Assembly (NCBI RefSeq): GCF_002854065.1 | Contig: NZ_CP024151.1 | DNA length: 64,000 bases | DNA from: Escherichia coli | GTDB lineage: Bacteria > Pseudomonadota > Gammaproteobacteria > Enterobacterales > Enterobacteriaceae | Direction: 5' to 3' (one strand) | Shown here: piece after piece, positions 42,656 to 64,000 of the stretch | Numbering within the stretch: position 1 is the first letter of the stretch | How the letters are laid out: every line of letters starts with the position of its first letter | Translations under genes and position numbers: made by a program | Notes under the pieces: model-generated | Databases searched by the model: none | What the model saw: the letters and a program-made list of their open reading frames with translations, nothing else | What the model was told of the DNA's origin: nothing

Positions 42656-43069
42656 AAGACAGTACCTTTTATATTCTGAAACAAGTGTTTTATTTCATTT
42701 ACTAATAGTTTGGTCTGAAAAAAGAAGAGCACCCCTAGCAGCGCCCCTAGGGGCATACTATAAAAAAACGCACGGCGCTGCTAGGGGCGGCCCTAATATA
42801 TCCAAATGTTTTTCATAAAATTTGTCAGTACTGACCCTAACAAGGGTCGCCATAGGGTCGCCATAGGGTCGTCAACGCCCCTATTTAATAATGTAAAATA
42901 AATTAAAATACATTATTTAAAACATAAGCTAATGATTCAAAAAGCAAATCAGCAAAAACTTGTTTTTGCGTGGGGTGTGGTGCTTTTGGTGGTGAGAACC
43001 ACCAACCTGTTGAGCCTTTTTGTGGAGTGGGTTAAATTATTTACGGATAAAGTCACCAGAGGTGGGAAA
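42656..43069 (+). other. oriT: oriT; nic site between 42978 and 42979 on the plus (transferred) strand
   Basis: Plus strand carries the F nic sequence TTTGCGTGGGGTGT^GGTGCTTT, inverted repeat GGTGGTGAGAACCACC (42988-43003), and GGGTCGCCATA direct repeats upstream. Confidence 0.85.
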
Positions 43070-43579: not shown

Positions 43580-43835
43580 TCTTACAGACATTGTCAGATA
43601 CCGGTTATGCCGCAAAAGCGGCATGGAAGGCCACACACAAAAATATCATATGAGTGACAATACTGACTGGCCGAAGCCCCGCGAAGCGGGAACCCATCTT
43701 ATATATACCCGGTAACTGCGCAGCCTCCTGCCAGACCATTTTTCGCGGGCACAATATTTACAGACAACCGGAAAGCCGGTTGATGAAATCGAGGTATATC
43801 AGACGACACAGCAATGCCGAAAAATGATAATATAA

Positions 43836-43867
43836 GTAAAGCCCCGAAAATTTTTTCGGGGCTTTAC
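43836..43867. terminator. Perfect palindrome, candidate bidirectional terminator
   Basis: GTAAAGCCCCGAAAA-TT-TTTTCGGGGCTTTAC, 9 bp downstream of the DUF932-like gene stop, T-rich on both sides. Confidence 0.5.
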
Positions 43868-43875
43868 TTATATTA

Positions 43876-44697
43876 TCATGACTTCCACTTTCTGAACTGT
43901 TCGGCAATCACCCATAACGCCTTGTTGATTCTTATATCACCATCAATACCTGTAATGGCTCTTGTCATGGTATTTTTCCCGGAGGCACTTCGCCCCGATA
44001 ATCCACCTTTTATCATATTCTCCTGAACCCGCTGCCAGGTCGTCCAGAGATCGTTCTGTTTATCCTCCCGACGACGGGGAGTAATTATCTGTTCAGGCGT
44101 CACTGGCGTTTTATTTTCATCTTCATACCTGACCATCAGTGCAGCTCTGCCAAATAAATGTTGCTCGTCACTGTTAAGATGAATTTCTTTCATCGCCTCC
44201 ATATTATCAGTGACCTTATCAAAGACACCGAGTACTTCATACGCTCCCTCGATAACCTGCCCGACAATATCACCTTTATGTGGAACGCGGATTTCGCCAA
44301 AATTATTTCCGCACACCAGGCCATTTGTGCAGACAAAACGAAAAATTCCGGGGATCATCTGATAACTGGATGAACCATCATGTGAATTAAGCAGGATAAT
44401 TTCAGGAACTTCCTGCCCGTTAATATGCCCTTCCCTGCGAAGACGTAACATATGTTTACTGTATTCGCGACGTCCCAAATCACGAACCCGACTCTGACAG
44501 GCAAAGAATGGCTGGAAACCTTCATCACGTAACTTATTGATGATATTGATTGTTGGAATATACGTATAACGTTCACTCCGGGACTTATGTTTATCACCGG
44601 AAAATACCGAAGGCACGAACTGCATTAATTCATCATCCGTTAAAGGACGTTCACGGCGGATGGAATTATACCGACCAAAACGGGAAGTTAATCGCAT
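43876..44697 (-). CDS. Conserved leading-region protein (DUF932-like, YubP-like)
   Basis: 273 aa from internal ATG MRLTSRFGRYNSIRRERPLTDDELMQF..., AGGAGT RBS. Confidence 0.65.
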   Translation of the reverse strand: MRLTSRFGRYNSIRRERPLTDDELMQFVPSVFSGDKHKSRSERYTYIPTINIINKLRDEGFQPFFACQSRVRDLGRREYSKHMLRLRREGHINGQEVPEIILLNSHDGSSSYQMIPGIFRFVCTNGLVCGNNFGEIRVPHKGDIVGQVIEGAYEVLGVFDKVTDNMEAMKEIHLNSDEQHLFGRAALMVRYEDENKTPVTPEQIITPRRREDKQNDLWTTWQRVQENMIKGGLSGRSASGKNTMTRAITGIDGDIRINKALWVIAEQFRKWKS

Positions 44698-45123: not shown

Positions 45124-45765
45124 GTTTTCAGCCCCCATCATCTGTTGAGTTTCGGGAGCCGCGGTTTTGACGTTTTGCGGGGACCTGCCTTTTGTTCCCT
45201 CCGGTATTCACCATCACCTTTTTGAGAACCTTCGCCGCAAGGGGCATCACTGCCACGGCCGGAAACGACTGTCCGGGGGCAGACCGCAAAAGTTTTTGCC
45301 TGCTTTTGAGCAAAAAGTTTTGCGGGATGTGCATTTCACCCCTGGACTGGCGGAGACGGTTGTGGCTGTCTATGCCCCCGGCGACAGGGGCTTAAACAGG
45401 TGAATGGCACCGGACACAACAACGGGCAGGGACCCGCCGCAACGACGTGAAGCGCGGTTTGCGAAACGGCGTTGCCCCTTACATCCCGGCGGCCTTTTGC
45501 CGGGATGCCGGGAGCGCAGGCCACGGCGCGACAGAGGCGGCGCGACCGGAACGGTCGCTGCAAGCCCGGGGTTTTCACGCATCGGACCGTAGCGACAGCC
45601 CGAAACCGCGCCAGCGGGTTCGGCGGAGACTGGCAGGTGCGCCAGCAGCTGCCTGTCGGAGTCGGGTCTGACGACCGGATGCCGCCAGGCAGCCGGGAGC
45701 CGAAGGTGCGCCCGGCAGACAGGACAACACTGCAGTAGTCAGAATCAGAGCAGGAAGAAAAAGAG
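45124..45765 (-). repeat. GC-rich leading-region repeat, copy 1 (Frpo/ssi-like candidate)
   Basis: ~640 bp nearly identical to 50461-51093 and, over its distal ~390 bp, to 53826-54433. Confidence 0.8.
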
Positions 45766-49690: not shown

Positions 49691-50438
<748 letters not shown>

Positions 50439-50460
50439 GATGTGCCTCCTTCTGTTGATG

Positions 50461-51093
50461 TTTTCAGCCCCCATCATCTTTTGAGTTTCGGGAGCCGCGG
50501 TTTTGACGTTTTGCGGGGACCTGCCTTTTGTTCCCTCCGGTATTCACCATCACCTTTTTGAGAACCTTCGCCGCAAGGGGCATCACTGCCACGGACGGAA
50601 ACGACTGTCCGGGGGCAGACCGCAAAAGTTTTTGCCTGCTTTTGGGCAAAAAGTTTTGCGGGATGTACATTTCACCCCTGGACTGGCGGAGACGGTTGTG
50701 GCTGTCTTTGCCCCCGGCGACAGGGGCTTAAACAGGTGAATGGCACCGGACAGAACAACGGGCAGGGACCCGCCGCAACGACGTGAAGCGCGGTTTGCGA
50801 AACGGCGTTGCCCCTTACATCCCGGCGGTCTTTTGCCGGGATGCCAGGAGCGCAGGCCACGGCGCGACAGAGGCGGCGCGACCGGAACGGTCGCTGCAAG
50901 CCAGGGGTTTTCACGCATCGGACCGTAGCGACAGCCCGAAACCGCGCCAGCGGGTTCGGCGGAGACTGGCAGGTGCGCCAGCAGCTGCCTGTCGGAGTCG
51001 GGCCTGACGACCGGATGCCGCCAGGCAGCCGGGAGCCGAAGGTGCGCCCGGCAGACAGGACAACACTGCAGTAGTCAGAATCAGAGCAGCAGG
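50461..51093 (-). repeat. GC-rich leading-region repeat, copy 2 (immediately upstream of ssb)
   Basis: Nearly identical to copy 1 with a few substitutions. Confidence 0.8.
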
Positions 51094-51104
51094 AAAAAGA
51101 AGAA

Positions 51105-51152
51105 CAGTAGCAGTAGCAGTAGCAGTAGCAGTAGCAGTAGCAGTAGCAGTAG
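51105..51152. repeat. Hexanucleotide tandem repeat (CAGTAG)8
   Basis: Eight perfect CAGTAG units adjacent to repeat copy 2. Confidence 0.9.
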
Positions 51153-51330
51153 CAGGAACAACAACATCAGTAACAGACAAATGACAGGCATGAAGAAACA
51201 GAAGCCCCCATCAGAACGTCCGCGTAATGAAAGGGGCGGCGCGTGAGCGCGGCCCCTTTCAGCACCACCGGCGCGCGTTTTTTCCCGGCGCGGGCAGACA
51301 GGCATTTATCCTCCCGCCGGCCCTGTGTCA

Positions 51331-51894
51331 TCAGGCACGCAGACGAATAATCATCGTCGGGACATCGGTATAAGCAAACGTGCCGCGCGGCAGCTCCTCG
51401 CGGACGTCAGAAAACGGTAACAGCTTCTCCTGCTGGCGTGGTCCGTTGAGACAGACGGCGACCAGCACGCCACCCGGACGCAACAGGGAAAAGGCCCGCA
51501 GGATATGCCGGATATCCTGCCCGTGGCTGAACGGCGGATTCATGATAACCCGGCTGTAATACTGCACCGGCTGCCATTCCATGAAGTCGCCACACTGAAC
51601 CCTGACACCGTTAAAATTTTCCCGCAGATACCGGACCAGCCCGCTGTTGATTTCCACCGCATCACACATGGCCCCCGGCGCGGTATCCCGAATCGCCCGC
51701 AGTATGGCCCCGGTGCCGGCAGAGGGTTCCAGAATGTGATCACGGTTGCTGATCTCCGCCAGCATCACCAGGCGATCACAGACCGGGGCAGGAGTCACAA
51801 AAAGCTGAGATTCAGCCCGGATTTCAGCAACCGGCGCGGCGTTATCCAGCCTTGCGCGCATCAGCCGGATACGTTCTCTTAACTGACTGTGCAT
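51331..51894 (-). CDS. SAM-dependent methyltransferase (putative N6-adenine class, NPPF motif)
   Basis: 187 aa with SAM-binding motif EPSAGTGAIL followed by IMNPPF. Confidence 0.65.
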   Translation of the reverse strand: MHSQLRERIRLMRARLDNAAPVAEIRAESQLFVTPAPVCDRLVMLAEISNRDHILEPSAGTGAILRAIRDTAPGAMCDAVEINSGLVRYLRENFNGVRVQCGDFMEWQPVQYYSRVIMNPPFSHGQDIRHILRAFSLLRPGGVLVAVCLNGPRQQEKLLPFSDVREELPRGTFAYTDVPTMIIRLRA

Positions 51895-51941
51895 ATCATT
51901 ATCTCCGTCATCCCCCGGGGATTTTCCCGGGGGGATATACC

Positions 51942-53303
51942 TTATTTCTGTGGGATTTCCGTGATTTTCATGTCGGAGATATACACATTCACCAGGCGGA
52001 AATTATTGTCCATTGTGCGGCGGTACCGGTATGCCCCGTGGTCTTCTGCTTCTGCCACACTGCGCACGGCCTTACAGTCCCGGGGCAGGGCGGCCCACTG
52101 TGCCTTTGTCATTTCCCGGAAACCTTCCCCCGGATAGTTGACTACCGGCGGACGCTTCGCGGCCTGACTGGCGACGGCAGCCTCTTCTGCCGATGGTGCT
52201 TTGTAGTCCGTGATGCGATCGGGCGTCACTTTCATCGTGCCGCTGTACCCGAGAAAACTGTAATTTGGCGTTGTGACTGAACTCACCGCCCCGTTGCTTT
52301 TGTTCACACGGATGATGGTCAGCCACTCGCCCCGGCTGAAAACCTGTCCGCCCGGCTCAAAATCCTGTGTCCGGGTAACCACGCCGCCGCTTTCGTCCAG
52401 CATGGCACGCTCATAGATCAGGCGGTTCTGATAGTGGTTAACCCAGCGTTGTTGATGCTGAATCTGCCGTTCATGACAGCGGATCGCAATTTCGCGGGCC
52501 TGCTCCGTGGTGATGATGTCATCATCCAGGGCCGACCATAACGATCGACTTCCTTCATACTGGCTTTTTTCTGCCGGGCGCGGATACGTATCCAGCGGGA
52601 AACAGGCGCTGATATGGTCATGACTGCTGATGAGTTTTGCCATATTCAGATCCAGCGATTCAGCCCGCCACATCGTCAGATATTTCTGCGACTGCGCGAT
52701 GGTCTTTTCAGCCTTGCGCAAATCAGCTTCGATTTTTTTGATACGACGCCAGCGAACGTCCGGACGTTCTTTATACTTCGCGTGAAGCAGTGCCGACCGC
52801 GCCCGCTCTTCCCAGTATTCCGCACGTTCAAAGAGCATCACGGCTCGTTTCATGCCGTTTTCAATACGCTGCGCATCACGACGGGCGCGGCGTTCGCTGT
52901 GATGCCCCACAAGAATGGGCTGACCGGGCGGGATCATCGCGGCCAGTCTTTCCACTTCATCAAGTGCCTGTGCGGATTCACTGGCCCGCTTTCCGCTGTA
53001 TCCGGTAAACCGCTCCGCCCGTGCTTCCTGACGTTCAGCGAGCGTGCTGTCTTCATCCTCAATCTCTCCGGCAAGTGAGAGGAGCACGTCTTCCCGGCCC
53101 GGTGTCCAGGCTGGCGCGACAAACAGCGCCTGTTTGGGTGCCCAGCGAAAACCGGCATCATGCACTTTTTTATACGTCTCCGGGTCGAGGCGTGACGCGG
53201 CATACAGGCGCAGTTTGTTGTCATCCGGTGAGTAGGTCGCGCGGTACATCTGCACAGGGCTGGCGGCTTCCGGGGCGGTCATGGTGATTGCTGCTAATGT
53301 CAT
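51942..53303 (-). CDS. Conserved leading-region protein of unknown function (453 aa, DUF3560-like)
   Basis: ATG preceded by AAGGAGA; charged helical central region, no recognisable catalytic motif. Confidence 0.5.
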   Translation of the reverse strand: MTLAAITMTAPEAASPVQMYRATYSPDDNKLRLYAASRLDPETYKKVHDAGFRWAPKQALFVAPAWTPGREDVLLSLAGEIEDEDSTLAERQEARAERFTGYSGKRASESAQALDEVERLAAMIPPGQPILVGHHSERRARRDAQRIENGMKRAVMLFERAEYWEERARSALLHAKYKERPDVRWRRIKKIEADLRKAEKTIAQSQKYLTMWRAESLDLNMAKLISSHDHISACFPLDTYPRPAEKSQYEGSRSLWSALDDDIITTEQAREIAIRCHERQIQHQQRWVNHYQNRLIYERAMLDESGGVVTRTQDFEPGGQVFSRGEWLTIIRVNKSNGAVSSVTTPNYSFLGYSGTMKVTPDRITDYKAPSAEEAAVASQAAKRPPVVNYPGEGFREMTKAQWAALPRDCKAVRSVAEAEDHGAYRYRRTMDNNFRLVNVYISDMKITEIPQK

Positions 53304-53354
53304 AAAATGTTCTCCTTCCGTCTGTTGCCGCCCCTCGCGGGGCGGCTCACCTCA

Positions 53355-53585
53355 TCAGTTAAAAGCGCGTTTCAGTTCGAGTGTGCGGAGCACCTGCCCG
53401 AAGGCCGTGTTTTTCATGGCGGGGATGTGTACACCACGCCCCCGGTGAAAACTCCGGGCAATGTGTCGCCCGAAGGCTTTCAGCACGGGGTCAATTTCCG
53501 GCGCGGGGATGTCTTCGCGTCTGAAACGGGGATGACGGCGGGGCTTTACAGCCGCTGCGGAAGGTGAAACAATACTTACTGTCAT
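53355..53585 (-). CDS. Hypothetical small basic protein (76 aa)
   Basis: ATG with AAGGAG RBS, downstream of repeat copy 3. Confidence 0.45.
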   Translation of the reverse strand: MTVSIVSPSAAAVKPRRHPRFRREDIPAPEIDPVLKAFGRHIARSFHRGRGVHIPAMKNTAFGQVLRTLELKRAFN

Positions 53586-53825
53586 AAATGAAACTCCTTA
53601 TGACAAATTGGTTAACAATGCCGTCAAAATTGGTTGTGCAATTCTTACGGCGTGGATTAAGCAGGTCCCTGACCTGCTTTTTTCATATCTGCGTCTGACG
53701 TTCTACGGTGTTTTCCTCCTTCTGTTCCTGCGTTCTCATTACCTGCCAGCCGGATGACTGACAGAACAAATAAATGCATATTGCCGGAGCCTGAAATAAA
53801 TCCTGATTTTTAAAGAACATCACCC

Positions 53826-54433
53826 GTTGAGTTTCGGGAGCCGCGGTTTTGACGTTTCGCGGGAACCTGCTGCTGTATTCCCTGTGGTATGAACTTCACC
53901 CGTTTGAGAACCTTCGCCGCAAGGGGCATCACTGCCACGGCCTGACGCACCTGTCCTGGGCAGAACGCAAAATTTTTTACCGGGTTTTGGGTAAAAAATT
54001 TTGTGGGCTGTTCATTTACCCTGGACAGTCAGTGCGGCAGGTTGTGGCTGTATCAGCCCCCGGCGACAGGGACTCATACGGGTGTGTGGCACCGGCAGGC
54101 AATGAGCAGGGACCCGCCGCAACGACGGAGAGCGCGTGCGCGAAACGGCGTTGCCCCTTACATCCCGGCGGCCTTTTGCCGGGATGCCGGGAGCGCAGGC
54201 CACGGCGCGACAAGGGTGGCGCGACCGGAACGGTCGCTGCAAGCCCGGGGTTTTCACGCATCGGACCGTAGCGACAGCCCGAAACCGCGCCAGCGGGTTC
54301 GGCGGAGACTGGCGGGTGCGCCAGCAGCTGCCTGTCGGAGTCGGGCCTGACGACCGGATGCCGCCAGGCAGCCGGGAGCCGAAGGTGCGCCCGGCAGACA
54401 GAACAACACTGCAGTAGTCAGAATCAGAGCAGC
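53826..54433 (-). repeat. GC-rich leading-region repeat, copy 3 (diverged in proximal third)
   Basis: Distal ~390 bp closely match copies 1 and 2; first ~220 bp diverge after the shared GTTGAGTTTCGGGAGCCGCGGTTTTGACGTTT. Confidence 0.75.
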
Positions 54434-54622
54434 AGATAAAGGAACAACAACATCAGGAACAGTTCCATAACATAAGAAAGAAACACTCCTGAGTCAGACA
54501 CATCACAGACGGGAAGGGTAACGGGCGACGCGCCAGCGTGGCCCGCTTCCCTTCCGGCAGGCGTCAGCCTGCCAGGGGTTTTCGCGCGGACTGACAGGCG
54601 GCCTCCACCGCCTGCCCCTGTA

Positions 54623-54814
54623 TCACCTGTTTCTGCTACCCTGTAAGATGTAGTGACCGCCCAGGAAAACCGCCTGCTGATTCGCCACAAAATCGCAGAT
54701 TTCATCAACAATCTGCGCGGTGGTGAGCGGTTTCTGCCCCATTTCACGACGCCGCGCATTAATCACGGCCCTGTAATTACGCAGAATTTCGCGGGTTTCT
54801 GTGCTGATATTCAT
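54623..54814 (-). CDS. Hypothetical small protein (63 aa)
   Basis: ATG overlapping the stop of the upstream 144 aa gene (ATGA), suggesting coupling. Confidence 0.45.
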   Translation of the reverse strand: MNISTETREILRNYRAVINARRREMGQKPLTTAQIVDEICDFVANQQAVFLGGHYILQGSRNR

Positions 54815-55245
54815 GACATCGTCTCCCCGTCCAGCGCCTGTAACACAACGTCCATTGCTTCGCGTTCCTCCCTGACGAATGCGTCACCGTCGCCCCCGTT
54901 CTCACTCCCGACGGCATACAGGCGCTTCATTTCACTGCCTGCCAGCGCCATCACTTTTTCCAGCATCACCGCCGGGACTGTCACCTGACGGCTGGCGCGC
55001 TTTTCTTCCATCAGTTCATGAACAACGCCGTGAACAACGCCGTGAACAACGCTGACATCCGCACCATATTCAAAGGCATCGTCCAGCCGCTGCATGACGG
55101 TTTCCAGCTCATCGTCTGTCAGACTCCAGTCCTGGGCTATGTGACGCACATCCCCACGGGTCAGCACCACGGCAAAAACGCATTCACTGTCCGGCACGTC
55201 TGTATCCAGCACTTCGCGGATAATTTCTTTAACAGTACAGTACAT
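54811..55245 (-). CDS. Conserved leading-region protein, paralog B (144 aa, DUF1380-like)
   Basis: AAGGAGA RBS; shares N-terminal MY-T-E--RE, S/LTD-E--TV and RQVTVPA segments with the 56961-57395 ORF. Confidence 0.55.
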   Translation of the reverse strand: MYCTVKEIIREVLDTDVPDSECVFAVVLTRGDVRHIAQDWSLTDDELETVMQRLDDAFEYGADVSVVHGVVHGVVHELMEEKRASRQVTVPAVMLEKVMALAGSEMKRLYAVGSENGGDGDAFVREEREAMDVVLQALDGETMS

Positions 55246-55291
55246 GTTCTCGTCTCCTTTACAGGGGCGGCATTGCCGCCCCGTCCGTTAA

Positions 55292-55717
55292 TCAGTCCAG
55301 AGCCGCGTAAATCGCGTTGCATTCGGGGTGAAATTCGATGTGACGCCACAACTGCGCATCGCGCATCCGGTAAAGCTGGGTCAGTCCTGCATCCCCGCTG
55401 TCGTGGTACAGCCACAACTGGCGGTTAATCACAAGGGAGGTCAGGATGATGCCTGCGGCATCAGCACTCACGGTACGGTCAAACCAGTTTGCACCGTTCA
55501 CCATGTGGAAACGGTCGCCATCCGGCATCATGTAACCGCCACCGTCCGGCAGGCGGATGAAGTGCCAGAAGCCTCCCTGATATTCCGGCATCATTTTTTG
55601 CGCCAGCGCGTACACATACGCCTCGGCATACAGAAAATCGTTGCCAAACAGATACGGCAGAAAGGAGAGACGGTCGCACTCTTCAACATTCAGAGTGACA
55701 GGTTTCGCATATTGCAT
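55292..55717 (-). CDS. klcA: Antirestriction protein, KlcA/ArdB family
   Basis: 141 aa; [18 protein letters not shown] and NAIYAALD segments parallel KlcA of IncP; GGAGGA RBS. Confidence 0.85.
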
Positions 55718-56133
55718 GATGTTTTCCTCCGTTGTTCACATATTCCGCGACACCGGGCGGTGCCGTGCCTCCATAAAAGCCGGGCGAACAGGCGGGGATG
55801 CAGGGGCGCAAGGGAAGCCGCAGCCTGACGCACACGGCTGACGGGAGTTGCAGGGTGAGACCGCGAAATCTGAGCGGGTGAACGACCGGAAAATCACGGC
55901 AGACGGGAAGGAGGGACCGGGTGACCGCAGCGGCGAAGCGTACCCTTGCATCAACGCCAGCCCGGCTAAGATGGAGGCACGGCACAGCCCGCACACGACG
56001 CTGAGGCCACATAACTGAAAAACCACAAGGCCATGCCCTGCATGGCCGGGTAAAGCGGAGCCGGCGGCGACTTCCTTTGTGCTCTGTCCGGGGACCGGCA
56101 GGAAAAAGGCGGGGATTTACCCCGCCAGTGTCA

Positions 56134-56910
56134 TCATTTCCGGATTTTTGCCAGGGCATCCGCCATGCTGCGGATTTCGGTCCGGGCTTCCCGGACCACC
56201 TCCCGCAGAACACCACGGTCAAACCAGCGGCGGGGCGGTTCATCCGGTATACGCAGCACATCGCAGGCCAGCCCACTGGACAGGATATGCTCAATACACT
56301 CACTGACCAGATACATTTCCACCGACGAAAAACGTGCTCCCCGGTTCACGATGGCATCGAGCACCACGGGCAGGTTTTCGTCATCTTCATCGAGCCAGCA
56401 GGGGTGATCGCTTTCCTTCACGACCAGGCGAAAGCGGCGCGTCTGGCGGGTCAGCAACGTCTGACCGGTGGTGGTCAGCGCCGCACGGATACGCCGCGCA
56501 TCTTCTGCCACCTGGTAACAGATGCTTCGTACCGCATCGTGCACCGCATCAAGAACAGCCTTGATTTCGTCTTCGGTCAGCCATTCTCCGGCATACGGGA
56601 AAGACACCTGCGTTCCGTCTGCCGGAAGTACCGGCAGCGACTGCCACTGACTGCCGGACAGTACCAGTTCCGCCCCGGTTCCGGTCAGTCTCTGAATGGC
56701 GGAGGCCAGGAGCGGCGGCAGTACGCCGCCGTGACGGTTGATAAGTAACGTCGCCAGCCGGGGCGCATCCAGCCGCACGTAAATGCTGATCCAGCCCGGA
56801 TAGTTCGGATTTCGCTGGTCAACATCCGTCTCTTCCGGCCAGTCCTGCGCCAGCAGCAGGTTACGGGCGTGACGACAAATCAGTGCGTTCAGCGTGCTGT
56901 TTTCGTTCAT
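56134..56910 (-). CDS. Hypothetical leading-region protein (258 aa from ATG 56910; track ORF extends to 56961)
   Basis: Internal [11 protein letters not shown] preceded by AGGGAGA; no recognisable motif. Confidence 0.5.
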
Positions 56911-56960
56911 GATTAAGCGTTCTCCCTGTATCGCCGCCCGCAGGGCAGGCGGCGATAACA

Positions 56961-57395
56961 TCAGTTGTTTTCGTGTGTGTTGTTTTTCAGCAGGGTGCGG
57001 GCCTGATTAACCACCGCCTGACGGCGGGTAACGCATTCCGGGACGGCGAGGCCGTTATCACGGGCGGCCCACTCACGTTTCCACAGTGCCTGTTCAGCGG
57101 TCTGAATCAGGGACGCCAGCAGTTCAGCAGGGACGGTCACCTGGCGGTTTTCGCTCACGTTGCTGATAATCTCCATCACCGCGGCGGAAGAAATACCGGA
57201 TTCAGTCCGCTGGTCTTCCGGGATGTCCTCCATGCGCGCCAGGACGGTCCTGATTTCATGATCGGTCAGAGAAATTTCCATACCGTCAGCCAGTGCCTGA
57301 ATCTCTTCCGGGGACCAGATAACCAGCATCAGCGGCGCGTCTCCCGGATACTTTGCTGCCAGCTCCCGGCATAGCGTTTCGCATGTTCCGTACAT
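56961..57395 (-). CDS. Conserved leading-region protein, paralog A (144 aa, DUF1380-like)
   Basis: AAGGAGA RBS; paralogous to the 54811-55245 ORF. Confidence 0.55.
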
Positions 57396-57408
57396 TCTCG
57401 TCTCCTTC

Positions 57409-57630
57409 TCAATCTTTGAAGCAGGAATCCAGTTCCAGAATTTCGGTATACGCCTCCATAAACAGGCGATTGGCGCGATACAGCGTCTGGCGTGTCAGGC
57501 GTTCAACAAGCACATCGGAATCAAAGCGACAGCGATGCTCCATATCGTTCAGCCTAGCCCGAAGGTCACACATGGTGTTGGCCACCTCCGCCACGTCGGC
57601 GCGAAGTTTTTCGTGTCCGGCATAGTTCAT
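57409..57630 (-). CDS. Hypothetical small protein (73 aa)
   Basis: ATG directly after the methyltransferase stop codon. Confidence 0.4.
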   Translation of the reverse strand: MNYAGHEKLRADVAEVANTMCDLRARLNDMEHRCRFDSDVLVERLTRQTLYRANRLFMEAYTEILELDSCFKD

Positions 57631-58314
57631 TTACGCAGCCTCCGGTTCAAACCAGTTATCATTCGCGGCCCCCTGCTGCATGGCCCGTTGCACGGCGGCC
57701 AGTCGTTGCTGTCCGGCACGGTGATACTGTTCAAGCAGCTCGATACCGATATACCGGCGTCCGGACTGGAGGGCGGCCACGCAGGTTGAGCCGCTGCCTG
57801 CAAACGGGTCCAGCACAATCGCGTTCGGATGTGTGAAGCTCTCAATCAGTGGTTGCAGGCTGGTAACGGGCTTTTCCGTCGGGTGATGGCGGTTGCCCGA
57901 ATATTTCCAGCCCAGCACGTCGGGTAATGGCTTCGGAGGCAGCGCCGGACGGCCTTTTGCCAGGATATAGGCGCATTCGTGACGGTACGCGACATACGCA
58001 GATTTGGATGTGTAGCTTTTGGTGAACACAAGGTGCCCTACAACGCTGAATCCGGCGCGTTTCCAGGCTGCCATAAAGCGGTCAATACGGTTCCAGCCAT
58101 AGAAACTCACCATCAGCGCATCTTTTTTTAGTACGCGGTACATCTCATTACTGGCAGGTTGCAGCCAGTCATCGTTAACGTCACCGGCAATGGTGCGCCC
58201 GGAACGGTCACGAAAACCAACGAGATATGGTGGGTCGGTTAAGATGAAATCAATGGCGTTATCAGGAATCGTGGCCATAACACGCACGCAGTCACCCAGG
58301 ATAAAACGGGACAT
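57631..58314 (-). CDS. DNA methyltransferase, beta-class N6-adenine/N4-cytosine type (DPPY motif)
   Basis: 227 aa with FILTDPPY near the N-terminus and DPFAGSGSTCVAA SAM-binding motif near the C-terminus; GAGGAGGA RBS. Confidence 0.8.
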   Translation of the reverse strand: MSRFILGDCVRVMATIPDNAIDFILTDPPYLVGFRDRSGRTIAGDVNDDWLQPASNEMYRVLKKDALMVSFYGWNRIDRFMAAWKRAGFSVVGHLVFTKSYTSKSAYVAYRHECAYILAKGRPALPPKPLPDVLGWKYSGNRHHPTEKPVTSLQPLIESFTHPNAIVLDPFAGSGSTCVAALQSGRRYIGIELLEQYHRAGQQRLAAVQRAMQQGAANDNWFEPEAA

Positions 58315-58699
58315 AACAGCACTCCTCCTCTTACAGAGGGCACCGGGAGGGCGCCCCTGTGGCGCCCGTTCTCCGCTGCCTGTGGGCTGTTCACCGCGTC
58401 CGGTAACGGGTCAGGCCGACCGTGGAATACCGCAGCCGTCGTCTTTCTGACGGCGAGGATATGCCGCGAAAGCGGCTTGAAGGGCATTCATCAGAAAAGG
58501 GCGACAGGCTGGCGTACACTGTCACCGACGCCAGCCAGGAGCGGTAAAAGCGCCCGTCCCGTGCCCGGCCGGACACGGGACACTGACCACAGGCAGCGTT
58601 CCTGCCGCGCCGCGTCAGCCGGCGCAGTAAAAAGAGGAGCACGGCGACATCCTTTGTCGGAAAAGAAACGGGCGGTTGCCCGCCCGTCTCCGTCATACT

Positions 58700-59626
58700 T
58701 CATCCGCCATAATGCGCCACCTTGTCGACTATCCACGCAGGTCCGGTGACTTCCGGCAGCTCATCGTCATCTGTCGGGGAAGACCATTCAAGTTCCCCCC
58801 ACAGCACATCAACGAGCTCTCCACGCTCATACAACTGCCAGCCACAGAAATTGCAGCCTTGTTCGGCGTACCAGTGCTCCAGCGTGCAGCTGAAACGGCG
58901 GCTTAATTCTGCAACAACGTCGCTTTCCGGCTGACACCACGGCGTGTCGAAATCCACCTGAATGAAGTTTTCTCCCTGACTGCTGATATTCAGGTCATAC
59001 CCACAAGGCCACTTCACGCCATACCGTTCGGTATACCAGTGATATGCAGAAGGAACACCGTTCAGAACACCACCGTTAAAGCCATTCACTTCAACATCCA
59101 GGCGGGTCGGCAGAACCGTCAGCAGGTCAAACGGCATGGTTTTTTCCGGCAGCACGTTGTCACACAGACGGTTCCACCACACCGATACATCCTCGTTACC
59201 CCAGATGTCACACCAGTCACCTCTTTTTGCGGTGAAATGCACAGTGATGATTTCCCTGACATCATCCGGTAATCCTTCCCAGCGACGCTGTCCAGTACCG
59301 CTCTGCAGCCAGAGTTTATGCAGCATCAGGCAGTTTTGCTCATCCAGCAGTACACCGTCCTGCAGGTATGTCAGCCAGCGGGTGAACGCGATATTCTCCG
59401 GCGATACAACGCCACGCCCGGCAGCCGTCAGTCCGGGGCATGGTTCAAACCGCACATCTTCAGTGGTCTGCAGAAGTCCGGCACTTCCGGCCAGAAACAG
59501 CTGAATACCTTCATTTGTGGCGCGGCGATAAAGCGGTGTGACTGCACCGCTGGCCAGTCGTTTAATCTCAGCAATCTGTGCCGGTTCACCAGAAAAATGC
59601 ATACGATTTGAGCACCAGTTTGGCAT
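58700..59626 (-). CDS. Hypothetical Cys/Trp-rich leading-region protein (308 aa from ATG 59626; track ORF extends to 59671)
   Basis: Internal ATG MPNWCSNRMHF preceded by GAGAGGAGAA; multiple C-x-x-C/W-C motifs. Confidence 0.55.
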   Translation of the reverse strand: MPNWCSNRMHFSGEPAQIAEIKRLASGAVTPLYRRATNEGIQLFLAGSAGLLQTTEDVRFEPCPGLTAAGRGVVSPENIAFTRWLTYLQDGVLLDEQNCLMLHKLWLQSGTGQRRWEGLPDDVREIITVHFTAKRGDWCDIWGNEDVSVWWNRLCDNVLPEKTMPFDLLTVLPTRLDVEVNGFNGGVLNGVPSAYHWYTERYGVKWPCGYDLNISSQGENFIQVDFDTPWCQPESDVVAELSRRFSCTLEHWYAEQGCNFCGWQLYERGELVDVLWGELEWSSPTDDDELPEVTGPAWIVDKVAHYGG

Positions 59627-59980
59627 GGGAATTCTCCTCTCACATGCGGCCTCTATCAGGCCGTGCCGCACCTGTAACCGGGCGACCGCATACGAATGCA
59701 GGTGCGGCCCCGAAGCCGCAGCGCGTGGAGGAGGAACGACGAAACGTGACCGGGTGAGGAGGCCGGCGACAGCGACACACTTGCATCGGATGCAGCCCGG
59801 TTAACGTGCCGGCACGGCCTGGGTAACCAGGTATTTTATTCACAGAACCGTGCGCAAAATGCTGTGGATAAGCTGGACACAGCAGTCCACAGCAGGCATA
59901 CAGCCACACCCTCAGAGAATTGAGCGTTTTTTAGTCACAATAATGACATTTGACTGTGTGTGGATTCAGTTATTAGAATG

Positions 59981-59996
59981 CTGTATATACATACAG
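59981..59996 (+). promoter_or_regulatory. LexA box (SOS operator) upstream of impC
   Basis: CTGTATATACATACAG fits CTGT-N8-ACAG, ~25 bp upstream of the impC ATG. Confidence 0.7.
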
Positions 59997-60019
59997 CAAT
60001 AGAAAAGGGAGATGAGAAC

Positions 60020-60268
60020 ATGATCCGCATTGAAATTCTTTTCGACCGCCAGAGCACAAAAAACCTCAAATCAGGCACACTTCAGGCGCTACAGAATGAA
60101 ATCGAACAACGTCTGAAACCACACTCCCCGGAAATCTGGCTGCGTATAGACCAGGGCAGCGCCCCGTCTGTATCTGTCACAGGAGCCCGCAACGACAAGG
60201 ATAAAGAACGTATCATGTCTCTGCTGGAAGAAATCTGGCAGGACGACAGCTGGCTGCCTGCAGCATGA
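60020..60268 (+). CDS. impC: ImpC (DinI-like SOS modulator)
   Basis: MIRIEILFDRQSTKNLKSGTLQALQNEIEQRLKPHSPEIWLRIDQGSAP...EIWQDDSWLPAA, DinI-family pattern. Confidence 0.85.
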   Translation: MIRIEILFDRQSTKNLKSGTLQALQNEIEQRLKPHSPEIWLRIDQGSAPSVSVTGARNDKDKERIMSLLEEIWQDDSWLPAA

Positions 60269-60702
60269 GTACCGTTTATCACCGTCCGGCTGACCCTTCA
60301 GGCGATGACAGTTACGTGCGACCGTTGTTTGCCGATCGTTGCCAGGCCGGTTTTCCTTCGCCTGCCACTGATTATGCTGAGCAGGAACTGGATCTGAACA
60401 GCTATTGCATCAGCAGACCTGCAGCCACCTTCTTTCTGCGCGCCAGCGGTGAATCGATGAACCAGGCTGGCGTGCAGAATGGTGATCTGCTGGTAGTGGA
60501 CAGGGCCGAGAAACCACAACACGGGGACATCGTTATCGCTGAGATCGACGGTGAGTTCACCGTCAAACGACTGCTGTTGCGCCCACGCCCGGCACTGGAG
60601 CCGGTTTCAGACAGCCCGGAATTTCGCACACTGTATCCGGAAAACATCTGTATTTTTGGTGTTGTCACTCACGTGATACACAGGACGCGGGAGTTACGCT
60701 GA
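60265..60702 (+). CDS. impA: ImpA (UmuD/MucA-like, S24 peptidase fold)
   Basis: 145 aa LexA/UmuD-like; start overlaps impC stop (ATGA). Confidence 0.9.
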   Translation: MSTVYHRPADPSGDDSYVRPLFADRCQAGFPSPATDYAEQELDLNSYCISRPAATFFLRASGESMNQAGVQNGDLLVVDRAEKPQHGDIVIAEIDGEFTVKRLLLRPRPALEPVSDSPEFRTLYPENICIFGVVTHVIHRTRELR

Positions 60703-61972
60703 TGTTTGCACTGGCTGATATCAACAGTTTCTACGCCTCATGTGAAAAAGTTTTCCGCCCGGACCTTCGCAACGAACCGGTCATCGTACTCAGCAATAAC
60801 GATGGCTGTGTGATCGCGCGCAGCCGGAGGCAAAAGCCCTTGGCATCAGAATGGGGCAGCCCTGGTTTCAGGTGAGACAGATGCGCCTGGAGAAGAAAAT
60901 ACATGTATTTTCCAGCAATTATGCGCTGTACCACAGCATGAGCCAACGGGTCATGGCTGTTCTGGAGTCGCTTTCTCCCGCAGTTGAGCCCTACTCAATT
61001 GATGAAATGTTCATTGATTTGCGGGGGATAAATCATTGCATCTCTCCGGAGGTTTTTGGTCATCAGCTCAGGGAACAGGTAAAGAGCTGGACAGGACTCA
61101 CCATGGGGGTGGGCATTGCGCCTACAAAAACGCTGGCTAAAAGTGCACAGTGGGCAACAAAGCAATGGCCACAGTTTTCCGGTGTGGTCGCGCTGGAGGC
61201 AGAAAACCGTAATCGGATCTTGAAGCTACTGGGGCTGCAGCCAGTTGGTGAGGTCTGGGGAGTAGGACGCAGACTGACGGAAAAGCTGAATGCGCTGGGT
61301 ATTAACACAGCACTGCAGCTGGCGCAGGCTAACACGGCATTCATCCGGAAAAACTTCAGCGTCATTCTTGAGCGTACGGTACGCGAACTCAACGGCGAGT
61401 CCTGCATATCCCTGGAAGAAGCACCACCGGCAAAACAGCAGATTGTCTGTAGTCGCAGTTTTGGTGAACGAATCACAGACAAAGATGCCATGCACCAGGC
61501 TGTTGTTCAGTATGCAGAGCGGGCCGCAGAGAAACTACGTGGGGAGCGTCAGTATTGCCGGCAGGTGACGACATTTGTACGGACATCCCCCTTTGCAGTA
61601 AAAGAACCCTGTTACAGCAATGCCGCTGTGGAAAAGCTTCCATTACCCACACAGGACAGCCGGGACATTATTGCCGCAGCATGCAGAGCGTTAAACCATG
61701 TCTGGCGTGAAGGGTACCGCTATATGAAGGCAGGAGTCATGCTGGCTGATTTCACACCATCGGGTATAGCGCAGCCGGGATTATTTGATGAGATCCAGCC
61801 CCGTAAAAACAGCGAAAAGTTAATGAAAACACTCGATGAACTGAACCAGTCTGGAAAAGGGAAAGTGTGGTTTGCGGGGCGAGGAACCGCCCCTGAATGG
61901 CAAATGAAACGGGAAATGCTCTCGCCTTCGTATACAACACAATGGACTGAGATCCCCATTGCTTCATTCTGA
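60702..61972 (+). pseudogene. impB: ImpB (UmuC/MucB-like Y-family polymerase), apparent -1 nt frameshift near 60822-60826
   Basis: N-terminal 40 codons (MFALADINSFYASCEKVFRPDL...VIARS) in frame 0 then stop at ~60878; remainder (EAKALGIRMGQPWFQ... 373 aa) continues in another frame. Confidence 0.8.
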
Positions 61973-61976
61973 TATA

Positions 61977-62405
61977 TCAGAATAATTTTTGCATTTTAAG
62001 GCGCACATCATTCATTGCCTCCTGCACCGAATCAGTAGCAGAAGGAGGCATTTTTTCAGCAGATTGCAAAGCACCGAGTTCAGTCAACACAGCTCTGATA
62101 TCGGCCTGAGAAGGCTTCCATCCTGTCGTCTGACTGAGTAAGGTTACAACCTGATCTGCTGAAAACTCCTCGCTCAAAATGGCAGTCAGCAATACAGGCA
62201 GGCGAGGATCAAGTTGGTGTAACGCCATTCCAGAAATAAATGCATTCCGGAACAGCTCACCACGCTCAGAACGCGGAACGGACTCTATCGCTTCCAAAGC
62301 TTGAAAGTCTGCAGCTTTTTCCGGATGCAGATAAAGTGTGAATTTTTTCCTTTTCCGTTCATCGTCCACAATATTACTCCTCTTTGAAAGCCGCGATAGC
62401 TTCAA
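61977..62405 (-). CDS. parR: ParR/StbB centromere-binding adaptor (type II partition)
   Basis: ESVPRSERGELFRNAFISGMALHQLDPRLPVLLTAILSEEF parallels R1 ParR; directly downstream of parM; start uncertain. Confidence 0.75.
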   Translation of the reverse strand: MKLSRLSKRSNIVDDERKRKKFTLYLHPEKAADFQALEAIESVPRSERGELFRNAFISGMALHQLDPRLPVLLTAILSEEFSADQVVTLLSQTTGWKPSQADIRAVLTELGALQSAEKMPPSATDSVQEAMNDVRLKMQKLF

Positions 62406-63345
62406 CCAGTGCTGTCTGTGGCGACTCCATCATCACTACTTTTTGCCCAAGATGGTGCCATGCCGTTTTTATCGAATCATAGATCAACGGGGCCCCACCA
62501 CCGACAACATAAACACGATTCACATGATGAAAATCACCGAGCTCATTGACTACTTGCTCCCCCAGACTGGCAATAGCCCCCTCAATGGTATTAAGGACCA
62601 GATCAGTTTTTGTTTCGTCATTTATAACCTGCCGAACAAAGTCCGGGTCATTACGACGTTTAATCAATTCATCTGCAACGAGGAAACTGGTATCACTGGA
62701 TGCCATGCGCAATGCACTCATTGCAGCTTTCGTAACTGAAGACACACCAATGCCAGAATTACCATGAATGGCACTTACAGAGTCAAATTGACCAACGATA
62801 ACACCAACATCAAGCGTAGTGCCGCCAATATCAACTACCAGCGATTTTTCGAACTGACCAACTTTATCCATGACCAGACGAGAAAACACAGCTGGCAATG
62901 ATTCAGGCATCACATCAACGTGTTCAATGGTGAAAACATCGCCTTTATTAAGACGAATCGGCCTCATTAAATTCTCAATTTTACGCTGAATGTTGAGTTC
63001 ATTTTTTTGACACTCTTTCGTGTAGAACTCACTGATAGGCAAAGTCACAGTCAATGATACAGGCTGAGGCGCTAATCCACTATTCAGTAAAGCGTGATGC
63101 ACAGCTAACAGGTTAACATCCGTATATTGATACTCAATATGAGTCGTAAGAATAGATTGGTTGCTAACTTCATCATACGTGTATTTTTTACCATCCAGTT
63201 CATAGTTAAATGTCTGGCGAATCCCTAACCCGTCAACCTTCCATCCATGACGAAATGAGTTTTGCGACAACGACTTACAGATTTTCCCATTGTCATTCCA
63301 TGCCAACTTGATTGTTGTTGAACCATCATCGCAGTATACGTTCAT
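62374..63345 (-). CDS. parM: ParM/StbA actin-like segregation ATPase
   Basis: 323 aa MNVYCDDGSTTIKLAW... with DIGGTT and VVGGGA motifs. Confidence 0.9.
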   Translation of the reverse strand: MNVYCDDGSTTIKLAWNDNGKICKSLSQNSFRHGWKVDGLGIRQTFNYELDGKKYTYDEVSNQSILTTHIEYQYTDVNLLAVHHALLNSGLAPQPVSLTVTLPISEFYTKECQKNELNIQRKIENLMRPIRLNKGDVFTIEHVDVMPESLPAVFSRLVMDKVGQFEKSLVVDIGGTTLDVGVIVGQFDSVSAIHGNSGIGVSSVTKAAMSALRMASSDTSFLVADELIKRRNDPDFVRQVINDETKTDLVLNTIEGAIASLGEQVVNELGDFHHVNRVYVVGGGAPLIYDSIKTAWHHLGQKVVMMESPQTALVEAIAAFKEE

Positions 63346-63349
63346 CTAT

Positions 63350-63570
63350 AGCCCCTTAAATACTCAATCTGAGTAAATCACTGTTTCTGGTTGCAAGGTA
63401 ATACTCAATTTGAGCACTATCATAGTTATGAAATCACAAAACACAAGTAATATTTATTACATCATATGACATACTTCATATTTCATACTTCATAAATATG
63501 AATGCATGTTGACACATCAGGTTACCGTGTCAAAATATCATCATACTTCACACATCACATTTATGAGGTT
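63350..63570. other. Candidate partition site / promoter region with short direct repeats
   Basis: AATACTCAAT(C/T)TGAG twice and CATACTTCATA twice, between divergent parM and the ParA-like gene. Confidence 0.3.
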
Positions 63571-63572
63571 GC

Positions 63573-64000
63573 AATGATTACTGTAGTTGGTGGGAACAAA
63601 GGTGGTTCAGGGAAAACTACCATTGCATCAAACCTGGCTATTGCTCTCGCAAATAAAGGAAGGGAAGTCTGCCTGTTAAACGGAGATCTACAACGAACAG
63701 CCGCAAAACATCATGCGGAACGAGAAGCTGCAGGACTGTTACCAGCAATAACCCTTGTTGAGAAATTTGATAACCTGACACAAACACTACAGGCTCTGAA
63801 TGAAAAGTTCGATGATGTAATAGTGGATGTCGCAGGAAGAAACTCAAAGGAATTCATAACGAGTGGAGTTGTCGCACATCAAATAATTGCGCCACTACAG
63901 TGTTCTCAACCAGATCTGGATACTCTTACAGAACTAGAACAACAGATAGACGCAATGCGTAACCTTAACCCGGAACTTAAGGTTTATTGTTTACAAAGTA
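63573..64000 (+). CDS. ParA/MinD-family P-loop ATPase, N-terminal part (runs past window end)
   Basis: ATG at 63573 after GAGG; deviant Walker A GGNKGGSGKTT; no in-frame stop before the window end. Confidence 0.65.

Follow-up and report, generated by a model that had tools for sequence, protein, structure and literature searches.

The 64,000-nucleotide (nt) stretch of Escherichia coli DNA analysed here (the window; contig NZ_CP024151.1) matches the IncFIB/FIC conjugative plasmid NZ_CP055056.1 exactly, and its portion from about 43 to 60 kb is an IncF leading region. We are concerned with one intergenic spacer in this region, at 58315-58699, which separates a DUF1281 gene from a DNA methylase gene and very probably contains a promoter that operates in single-stranded DNA (ssDNA). 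The genes of the leading region, namely hok, psiA, psiB, a parB-like gene, ssb, a class I methyltransferase gene, klcA/ardB, DUF1380 genes and those of the DNA methylase and DUF1281, all lie on the minus strand and are directed back to oriT and traM. The F-type nic sequence, GTGGGGTGT followed by GGTGCTTT, is found on the plus strand at 42970-42986. In the transfer of F, the 5' end at nic leads. Given this polarity and the position of nic, the plus strand is the transferred strand and enters the recipient by increasing coordinate; as the genes lie on the minus strand, the transferred strand is also the template of the leading-region genes.

The spacer exactly fills the 385-nt gap between the stop codon of the DUF1281 gene (58700-59626, minus strand; 308 residues counted from ATG) and the ATG of the methylase gene (57631-58314, minus strand). 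The 227-residue methylase carries a DPPY motif, matches Pfam N6_N4_Mtase (6.7e-39) and is a homologue of M.EcoGIX; its operon further comprises a 73-residue open reading frame (ORF) and a DUF1380 gene. The original prediction, made from the sequence of the window, had described a GC-rich, hairpin-rich spacer of about 385 bp 5' of a gene with a strong ribosome-binding site, and each of these features was found. The ribosome-binding site, AAGAGGAGGAG (58322-58332, minus strand), has AGGAGG 9 nt ahead of the methylase ATG, and the GC content of the spacer is 0.649, compared with 0.522 for the whole window and 0.54-0.56 for the two flanking genes. Folded as ssDNA with DNA parameters, the plus strand reaches -108.4 kcal/mol (z = -6.1) and the minus strand -109 kcal/mol (z = -7.1), values equalled by none of 100 dinucleotide-preserving shuffles in either case. 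The structure is closed by a long imperfect inverted repeat, in which 58374-58403 pairs with 58569-58598 (30 nt, 165 nt apart). The spacer is 95-96% identical to its counterparts in pESBL and F, where the methylase gene is 88-89% identical, so that it is conserved at least as well as the neighbouring genes. At least 5000 PLSDB plasmids carry it, as do 3447 of 5426 complete E. coli genomes, or about two-thirds of them.

What, then, is this element? We assign a probability of roughly 0.88 to its being the IncF copy of the 'class 3' ssDNA promoter, i.e. the M.EcoGIX promoter of pESBL, called ssp3 in F. Over 385 nt, the spacer is 95.3-97% identical to the DUF1281-M.EcoGIX spacer of pESBL-EA11 (L003:4398-4781 in our sequence set) and 95.8% identical to its counterpart in F (L004:8782-9166). 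The methylase of the window is 92% identical to M.EcoGIX of pESBL, an anti-restriction methylase specific for single strands and silent in donors. In a study of pESBL, donors were killed selectively and the RNA of transconjugants was sequenced (PMC12672017; Nucleic Acids Research, December 2025). According to this article, six leading-region operons show, within 15 min of conjugation, an induction of up to 500-fold, a large ssDNA hairpin stands before each of them, and every start site was mapped by 5' rapid amplification of cDNA ends (5'RACE); the hairpin before M.EcoGIX is designated class 3, its 5'RACE start agrees with the ssDNA-hairpin promoter prediction, and classes 2 and 3 are conserved in F. 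The screen of that study counts as a large stem-loop one below -75 kcal/mol per 300-nt window, a threshold which the spacer passes with -92.1 kcal/mol over 340 nt and with the value given above over 385 nt. A subsequent preprint (bioRxiv 10.64898/2026.01.09.698686; January 2026) names the F copies ssp2 and ssp3 and reports that ssp3 replaces ssp2 as a promoter cassette 'of equivalent strength', without the replication-roadblock property of ssp2. The function as a single-strand promoter is already known, having been published in late 2025; our analysis adds evidence from covariation and strand asymmetry, a model of the promoter across a junction, the recognition of a spurious ORF and a wider family of ssDNA signals.

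Near-identical sequences, as returned by Megablast from PLSDB, lack the diversity for a comparative analysis, and the diverged homologues came from a scan of genome contigs with the methylase protein, which at one genome per species gave 48 loci. In many Enterobacterales, among them Erwinia, Raoultella, Citrobacter, Klebsiella grimontii, Edwardsiella and Hafnia, a class 3 homologue of 75-84% identity stands before the methylase gene, and some loci have a second copy, located before the DUF1281 gene in L017 and in tandem in L035. The core hairpin, as delimited by an nhmmer profile of the homologues and by the consensus fold, spans 58368-58600 on the plus strand. In an alignment of 19 class 3 sequences from Enterobacterales (A2; 75-96% identity), the consensus fold has 76-86 pairs, 97.4% of the cells are paired and 18 pairs are changed on both sides, counts whose weight is lessened by the fact that the 19 homologues group into few clades and are not independent. 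When the structure was slid by 1-3 columns as a control, 33-44% of the cells were paired and 0-6 two-sided changes remained. Judged by these alignments, the class 3 fold is maintained by compensatory changes, i.e. it is under selection. The comparison across related plasmids proposed in the original prediction thus revealed a conserved spacer with compensatory changes, and the suggested role as a promoter, or single-strand promoter, of the methyltransferase sub-operon gains support from the published near-identical element, the strand and the fold.

In other Enterobacterales plasmids, class-2-like hairpins take the place of class 3 before the orthologous methylase gene (83-92% protein identity; L008, L012-L016, L018, L020, L023-L025, L047 and L048). 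As the same methylase can stand behind either type, the hairpins behave as exchangeable cassettes, which on this comparison appear to have been swapped between operons.

To which strand does the fold belong? With DNA parameters, the consensus fold amounts to -56.6 kcal/mol on the transferred strand and -39.4 kcal/mol on its complement, and the minimum free energy of the individual sequences is lower on the transferred strand in 19 of 19 cases, by 5.3 kcal/mol on average. From this comparison, the fold is that of the transferred strand. The result bears directly on the alternative that the structure acts in RNA, be it as a long leader or attenuator of a DUF1281-methylase co-transcript or as a small RNA. 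Such a role would be compatible with the equally good fold of the minus strand in the window sequence, with the terminator-like hairpin behind the DUF1281 gene described below and with the small stem at 58349-58367, where C.A cells of the plus strand become G.U in RNA. However, the consensus fold is better by 17 kcal/mol on the transferred strand, helix A of the apical arm needs G.T pairs that turn into C.A in the RNA sense, and both the GCGAAAGC motif and the RSB-like motif introduced below are present on the plus strand only. Furthermore, a search of the spacer against Rfam on both strands (E<=1; scan of 50000-64000) gave no match to any curated RNA family, and most of the hairpin would remain untranscribed if the predicted start is right. 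We therefore regard an RNA-level function as very unlikely.

A further reading is suggested by the RefSeq annotation, which places a hypothetical protein of 101 residues over the hairpin (58391-58696, minus strand). This ORF is uninterrupted in the window, in F and in L010. A 1-nt indel in pESBL and L007, however, puts its N-terminal half into another frame, from which the same stop is reached; in L005 it is called as frameshifted, and in homologues of 75-84% nucleotide identity it is broken, absent or found in another frame. Its predicted product is arginine-rich and of low complexity, as expected for translated GC-rich hairpin DNA, and the substitutions across it are compensatory for base-pairing. 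By these sequence criteria the ORF is spurious, and the chance that the spacer encodes this protein is, in our judgement, close to nil. The original description of the spacer as non-coding consequently stands insofar as no frame is conserved, with the qualification that RefSeq does list a protein there. The spurious ORF recurs in thousands of RefSeq plasmids, and some records list an additional 'arginase' feature under the match.

Could the hairpins merely be incidental to a high GC content, in a spacer that comprises an ordinary duplex promoter and a terminator? Promoters are typically found at intergenic sites such as this one, ahead of a strong ribosome-binding site, and a hairpin resembling an intrinsic terminator, GGAGACGGGCGG-GCAA-CCGCCCGUUUCU followed by a U-rich tail, is located right behind the DUF1281 stop codon (58660-58691, minus strand). 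Together with a second small hairpin it forms a 63-nt stretch (58702-58640) with an RNA fold of -28.1 kcal/mol. A duplex terminator scan of 58200-58800 returned nothing, and the hairpin emerged only by folding; the scan overlooked it because the T tract can be drawn into its stem. Transcription from upstream would be kept out of the methylase operon by this hairpin. Against a duplex promoter, a scan of the same interval found no sigma-70-like consensus site on either strand, the fold lies at z = -6 to -7 relative to the shuffles, compensatory covariation extends over 230 nt, and the published data describe genes that are silent in donors and transiently induced in transconjugants. This makes an ordinary promoter with incidental hairpins highly improbable.

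For the class 3 hairpin, we propose a model in which the promoter extends across a three-way junction, with a split -35 element, GACACT as -10 element and a start at 58380-58383; we would give these details about even odds. The basal stem consists of a 5' arm (58374-58403, plus strand) and a 3' arm (58569-58598, plus strand), and 10 pairs of its helices 2-3 are changed on both sides. Transcription toward the methylase, which would run to lower coordinates, has to copy the 5' arm; this leaves the 3' arm, in the direction from loop to base, as the non-template strand. The stem is followed by the P2 helix (helix 4), in which ACGGG (58406-58410) pairs with CCCGT (58558-58562) in 100% of the sequences, and by helix A, formed by TCAGGCCG (58411-58418) and CGGCTTGA (58473-58480) at the start of the apical arm; both helices are on the plus strand. 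Between the 3' strands of helix A and P2, branch B (58482-58555, plus strand) would be extruded as the third arm of the junction. It varies in sequence and in length, with about 70 nt in Enterobacterales and 41-46 nt in Burkholderiales, and is absent in a microvirus discussed below. The first four bases of the proposed -35 element, TTGA (58477-58480, plus strand), are invariant in all 19 sequences of a broader alignment, A3, which covers Enterobacterales, Achromobacter/Bordetella and Paraburkholderia. The one-base A linker, the G that opens the linker of two bases behind branch B (17 of 19 have GT, L027 and L043 have GC) and the CC are likewise invariant, while the two helices change between clades by compensation, from GGCC/GGCT to AGGG/CCCT in helix A and from ACGGG/CCCGT to GCGCGG/CCGTGC in P2.

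If helix A is stacked on P2, the non-template strand would read TTGA followed by the CC of the P2 3' strand, and this virtual -35 element, TTGACC, agrees with five of the six consensus bases. In the microvirus and in many of the IMG/VR copies, which lack branch B, the -35 position is occupied by TTGACA, TTGACG or TTTACA without interruption. The proposed -10 hexamer GACACT (58579-58584, plus strand) is carried by the non-template arm inside a mismatched bubble. In Enterobacterales its A2, A4, C5 and T6 are invariant or nearly so; the A at position 2 (-11) always faces a C.A mismatch and the T at position 6 (-7) always a T.T mismatch. In Burkholderiales, GACTGT or GATTGT is found exactly 17 nt past the virtual -35 element, with the A bulged and the T in a G.T wobble. 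A-11 and T-7 are the two bases flipped out by sigma-70, and a promoter in which they are permanently unpaired would need little else. The predicted start at 58380-58383 (minus strand) lies 5-8 nt past the -10 element and would leave a 5' untranslated region of about 66 nt. This includes a small covarying stem-loop, GGGCGCC-ACAGG-GGCGCCC (58349-58367, minus strand; helix 1, folded as RNA), in which four of six pairs are changed on both sides. In the duplex form, the -35 and -10 elements are on the opposite strand, 96 nt apart and directed away from the gene, and the sense strand offers only CTGACC-N15-AACAGC; this arrangement would explain how the promoter is switched off.

Two other assignments were considered and rejected. 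For contiguous sigma-70 boxes on the arms (TTGAAG-N17-GGCGAC, CTGACC/AACAGC and TGTCAC-N19-TAAAAG), the -10 candidates are not conserved or lack T-7; for a homology of branch B to the class 2 -35 region (28 nt at 79%), the putative boxes are not conserved in the class 3 homologues.

Several points weigh against the assignment to class 3 and, in particular, against the promoter model. The window sequence, taken alone, folds equally well on both strands (-108.4 vs -109 kcal/mol), and the excess of G.T over A.C cells in the consensus structure (81 vs 11) is partly biased, the structure having been predicted on the transferred strand. The promoter spacer is of unequal length on the two strands: in Enterobacterales, 18-19 nt separate the -35 element from GACACT on the non-template and 15 nt on the template strand, over a 6x2 internal loop, an asymmetry that would give an effective spacer of about 17 bp. 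GACACT matches the -10 consensus at only three of six positions, and MAFFT sets the Burkholderiales -10 region in a register other than the one assigned by spacing. The -35, -10 and start positions are predictions of the model. Finally, promoter activity of the spacer in the window is deduced from published experiments with a near-identical sequence.

How would a class 3 promoter act during conjugation? The plus strand would enter the recipient 5' to 3' from nic at about 42979, and the spacer would follow about 15 kb later. Still single-stranded, 58368-58600 would fold into the large branched hairpin, part of which would be read as a promoter by the host sigma-70 RNA polymerase, transcribing down the 5' arm into the methylase operon. 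The apical module described below, just upstream of the -35 element, would probably aid in recruiting the polymerase or in excluding SSB. In this way, the single-strand-specific methylase could be made before restriction enzymes meet duplex DNA. Synthesis of the complementary strand would then iron out the hairpin and shut the promoter off. With such a switch, expression of the anti-restriction methylase would be timed to the first seconds that a resistance plasmid spends in a new cell, and the element would belong to the machinery by which IncF and IncI plasmids spread.

The most conserved part of the class 3 element is an invariant apical module of 80 nt (58405-58488, plus strand). It is composed, in this order, of helix A, 1-2 unpaired bases, CGTGGAATA (58421-58429, plus strand), a variable hairpin, TATGCCGCGAAAG (58460-58473, plus strand) and helix A' bearing the -35 element, with the -35-like hexamer 3-5 nt past TATGCCGCGAAAG. 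The TATGCCGCGAAAG segment, invariant in all homologues, resembles the RSB motif, and a d(GCGAAAGC) mini-hairpin motif lies within its region (58466-58473, plus strand). R1, a covariance model of this module, reaches 71.7 bits (E 3e-17) in the window and finds exactly one copy each in the window, F and pESBL.

The module reaches well beyond these plasmids. In Achromobacter, Bordetella petrii and Paraburkholderia, it is located upstream of methylase homologues of 62-66% protein identity (loci L037-L046, at about 1820-1930). It is also found in a long non-coding region of the microvirus bajarodmic virus 506 (PQ006669.1; L055:1533-1616), and an exact search for the two motifs retrieved it from 85 IMG/VR contigs (L056-L140). 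In the microvirus region L055:1447-2103, the module is antisense to all genes, and packaging would be expected of the other strand; GCGTTAGC, the mini-hairpin variant of phages St-1 and alpha3, is on the module's strand too. Among 42 representatives with 33 different helix A arm sequences, the arms pair at 7.8 of 9 positions, compared with 5.8 when they are permuted between sequences, and a C-G/A-T switch (19 vs 19) is seen beside an ATA/TAT helix. Behind the second motif, 36 of these 42 have a -35-like hexamer of the TT(G/T)A type, and the remaining six have TTGGCA, TTGCAC, TTCGCA-type or similar hexamers, with none in L113. In 39 of the 85 IMG/VR contigs, a rolling-circle Rep gene (Pfam REP_ORF2-G2P) is situated 117-193 nt from the module, which is in sense on the rep coding strand in every one of these 39. 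By analogy with filamentous phages and rolling-circle plasmids, the rep coding strand would be the one displaced as ssDNA, a placement of the module reminiscent of single-strand origins (sso), and the module has the appearance of a widespread signal, be it a single-strand origin or an ssDNA promoter. Its position on the rep coding strand beside Rep points to an RNA-polymerase-dependent single-strand origin, either as the ancestor or as a second role of the element. By this comparison, the core of class 3 is far older and more widespread than the plasmid family of its first description, and the compact 80-nt motif could be used to find ssDNA promoters or origins in unannotated sequence.

Two related scenarios can be derived from this distribution. 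Tentatively, and with less than even confidence, we consider the apical module an ancient mobile ssDNA signal that recruits RNA polymerase, with class 3 elements as domesticated single-strand origins that may also prime the complementary strand, equipped with a split -35 and a pre-melted -10 element. The module may then be common to entero- and betaproteobacterial conjugative plasmids, rolling-circle phage-like elements and at least one microvirus. Alternatively, the element could be mainly, or also, a single-strand origin, comparable to Frpo, the filamentous-phage minus-strand origin or the sso of rolling-circle plasmids, at which RNA polymerase starts a primer and methylase expression is a by-product or second use. 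The recurrence and strand preference of the module in the IMG/VR contigs would fit such an origin, as would TATGCCGCGAAA, which shares 11 of 12 bases with RSB, and the GCGAAAGC mini-hairpin, which is present at the complementary-strand origin of phage G4 and binds SSB poorly; a precedent for a dual role is given by Frpo, the transcripts of which prime DNA synthesis. However, PMC12672017 describes for pESBL a downstream operon that is strongly induced and has a mapped start site, and ssp3 can stand in for ssp2 as a promoter. In addition, the priming role of class 3 would rest on analogy, model R1 has no match in pT181, pE194 and pUB110, and the antisense orientation in the microvirus is not predicted for an origin on the packaged strand. 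On balance, a function as single-strand origin, be it the main or an additional one, seems rather unlikely. If true, the link would tie zygotic induction to second-strand priming.

The spacer is one of several elements of this kind within the window's leading region. Three repeats of about 640 nt match Frpo1/Frpo2 of F, the class 1 elements (45124-45760, 50460-51096 and 53806-54439), and each comprises a long hairpin and, behind it, a second half that is GC-rich and structured. Identity is about 98% between the first two; the third agrees with them at 97% over its second half but at just 67% over its first. F has been described with two Frpo copies. Right after the second repeat, there is a short tandem array (AGTAGC/GCAGTA, 12-nt copy spacing; 51104-51164), and a degenerate stretch related to it is found at 54428-54462. 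The spacer upstream of klcA/ardB (55718-56133) is a class 2 ssDNA promoter, corresponding to ssp2 of F; it shares 96% identity with the klcA spacer of pESBL and 95% with the pESBL ardA spacer. In a 2026 preprint, the class 2/ssp2 element is described as a roadblock to replication that UvrD resolves. The spacer upstream of the DUF1281 gene (59627-59960) is 98.8% identical to that of pESBL and 95% to that of F and contains a conserved hairpin with arms at 59657-59683 and 59795-59821, the 3' arm of which resembles the class 2 arm (TTGCAT-N15-TAACGT vs TTGCAT-N15-TAAGAT upstream of klcA). From this resemblance it may represent a further ssDNA promoter, outside the six reported for pESBL. Two other features of the region are a perfect inverted repeat of 27 nt around a 2-nt loop (ATGATAATATAAGTAAAGCCCCGAAAA and its complement; 43824-43879) near the start of the leading region, which is probably a bidirectional terminator, and the only Rfam match within 50000-64000, above the gathering score, to AS-pc01, the antisense RNA to pHK01_035 (RF02875; 53580-53682, plus strand; 91.3 bits).

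Comparison with known systems places the spacer closest to class 3 of pESBL and ssp3 of F, with which it shares the flanking genes (DUF1281 upstream, an M.EcoGIX-type methylase downstream), the position in the leading region and the strand relation to oriT. From pESBL class 3 it differs by point differences only, several of them compensatory, as in the small stem GGGCGCC/GGCGCCC, which is GGGCACC/GGTGCCC in pESBL; the host plasmid of the window is IncFIB/FIC, whereas pESBL is IncI1.

There is also a likeness to origins of second-strand synthesis. The complementary-strand origin of phage G4 has the same extraordinarily stable d(GCGAAAGC) mini-hairpin motif, on a strand that is single-stranded in vivo, and there the motif has been reported to exclude SSB. 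The G4 origin, however, depends on the DnaG primase and not on RNA polymerase and has no further sequence similarity to the spacer; unlike in G4, the consensus fold of class 3 draws GCGAAAGC into longer helices, so that the mini-hairpin is not formed. The sso elements of Gram-positive rolling-circle plasmids share with class 3 that folded ssDNA is seen by the host's RNA polymerase as a promoter, in a strand- and orientation-dependent manner. Their RSB motif, TTATGCCGAGAAAATTT, is conserved in ssoA, ssoU, ssoT and ssoW and is needed for binding of RNA polymerase. TATGCCGCGAAA matches the RSB of pT181 and pSELNU1, TATGCCGAGAAA, in 11 of 12 positions, with one base differing in what is a short motif; no exact RSB-like string was found in pUB110, and the order of motifs in palA of pT181 differs from that of the class 3 module. 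The CS-6 loop (TAGCGT) was not noticed on reading the spacer, for which no dedicated search was made. The relation of class 3 to sso is thus a resemblance in mechanism and in one motif, and membership in the ssoA/ssoU family is not claimed, as covariance model R1 found no match in the three plasmids named above at E<=10. A further difference from the sso elements, as from the filamentous-phage minus-strand origin, is that the product of class 3 is an mRNA and not only a short primer.

Among the closest known systems are also the class 1 ssDNA promoters, Frpo and ssi1-3 (Masai and Arai, 1997; Couturier, 2023). Like class 3, these are hairpins of the transferred strand that imitate a sigma-70 promoter, are active only in single-stranded form and drive leading-region genes. 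There is no sequence similarity between the two, as is also stated in PMC12672017: the class 3 profile gave no match in the three Frpo-like repeats of the window, the repeat families of which exclude the spacer. The two classes also differ in architecture. Frpo is one contiguous imperfect stem, whereas class 3 is branched and, according to our model, would assemble its -35 element across the junction.

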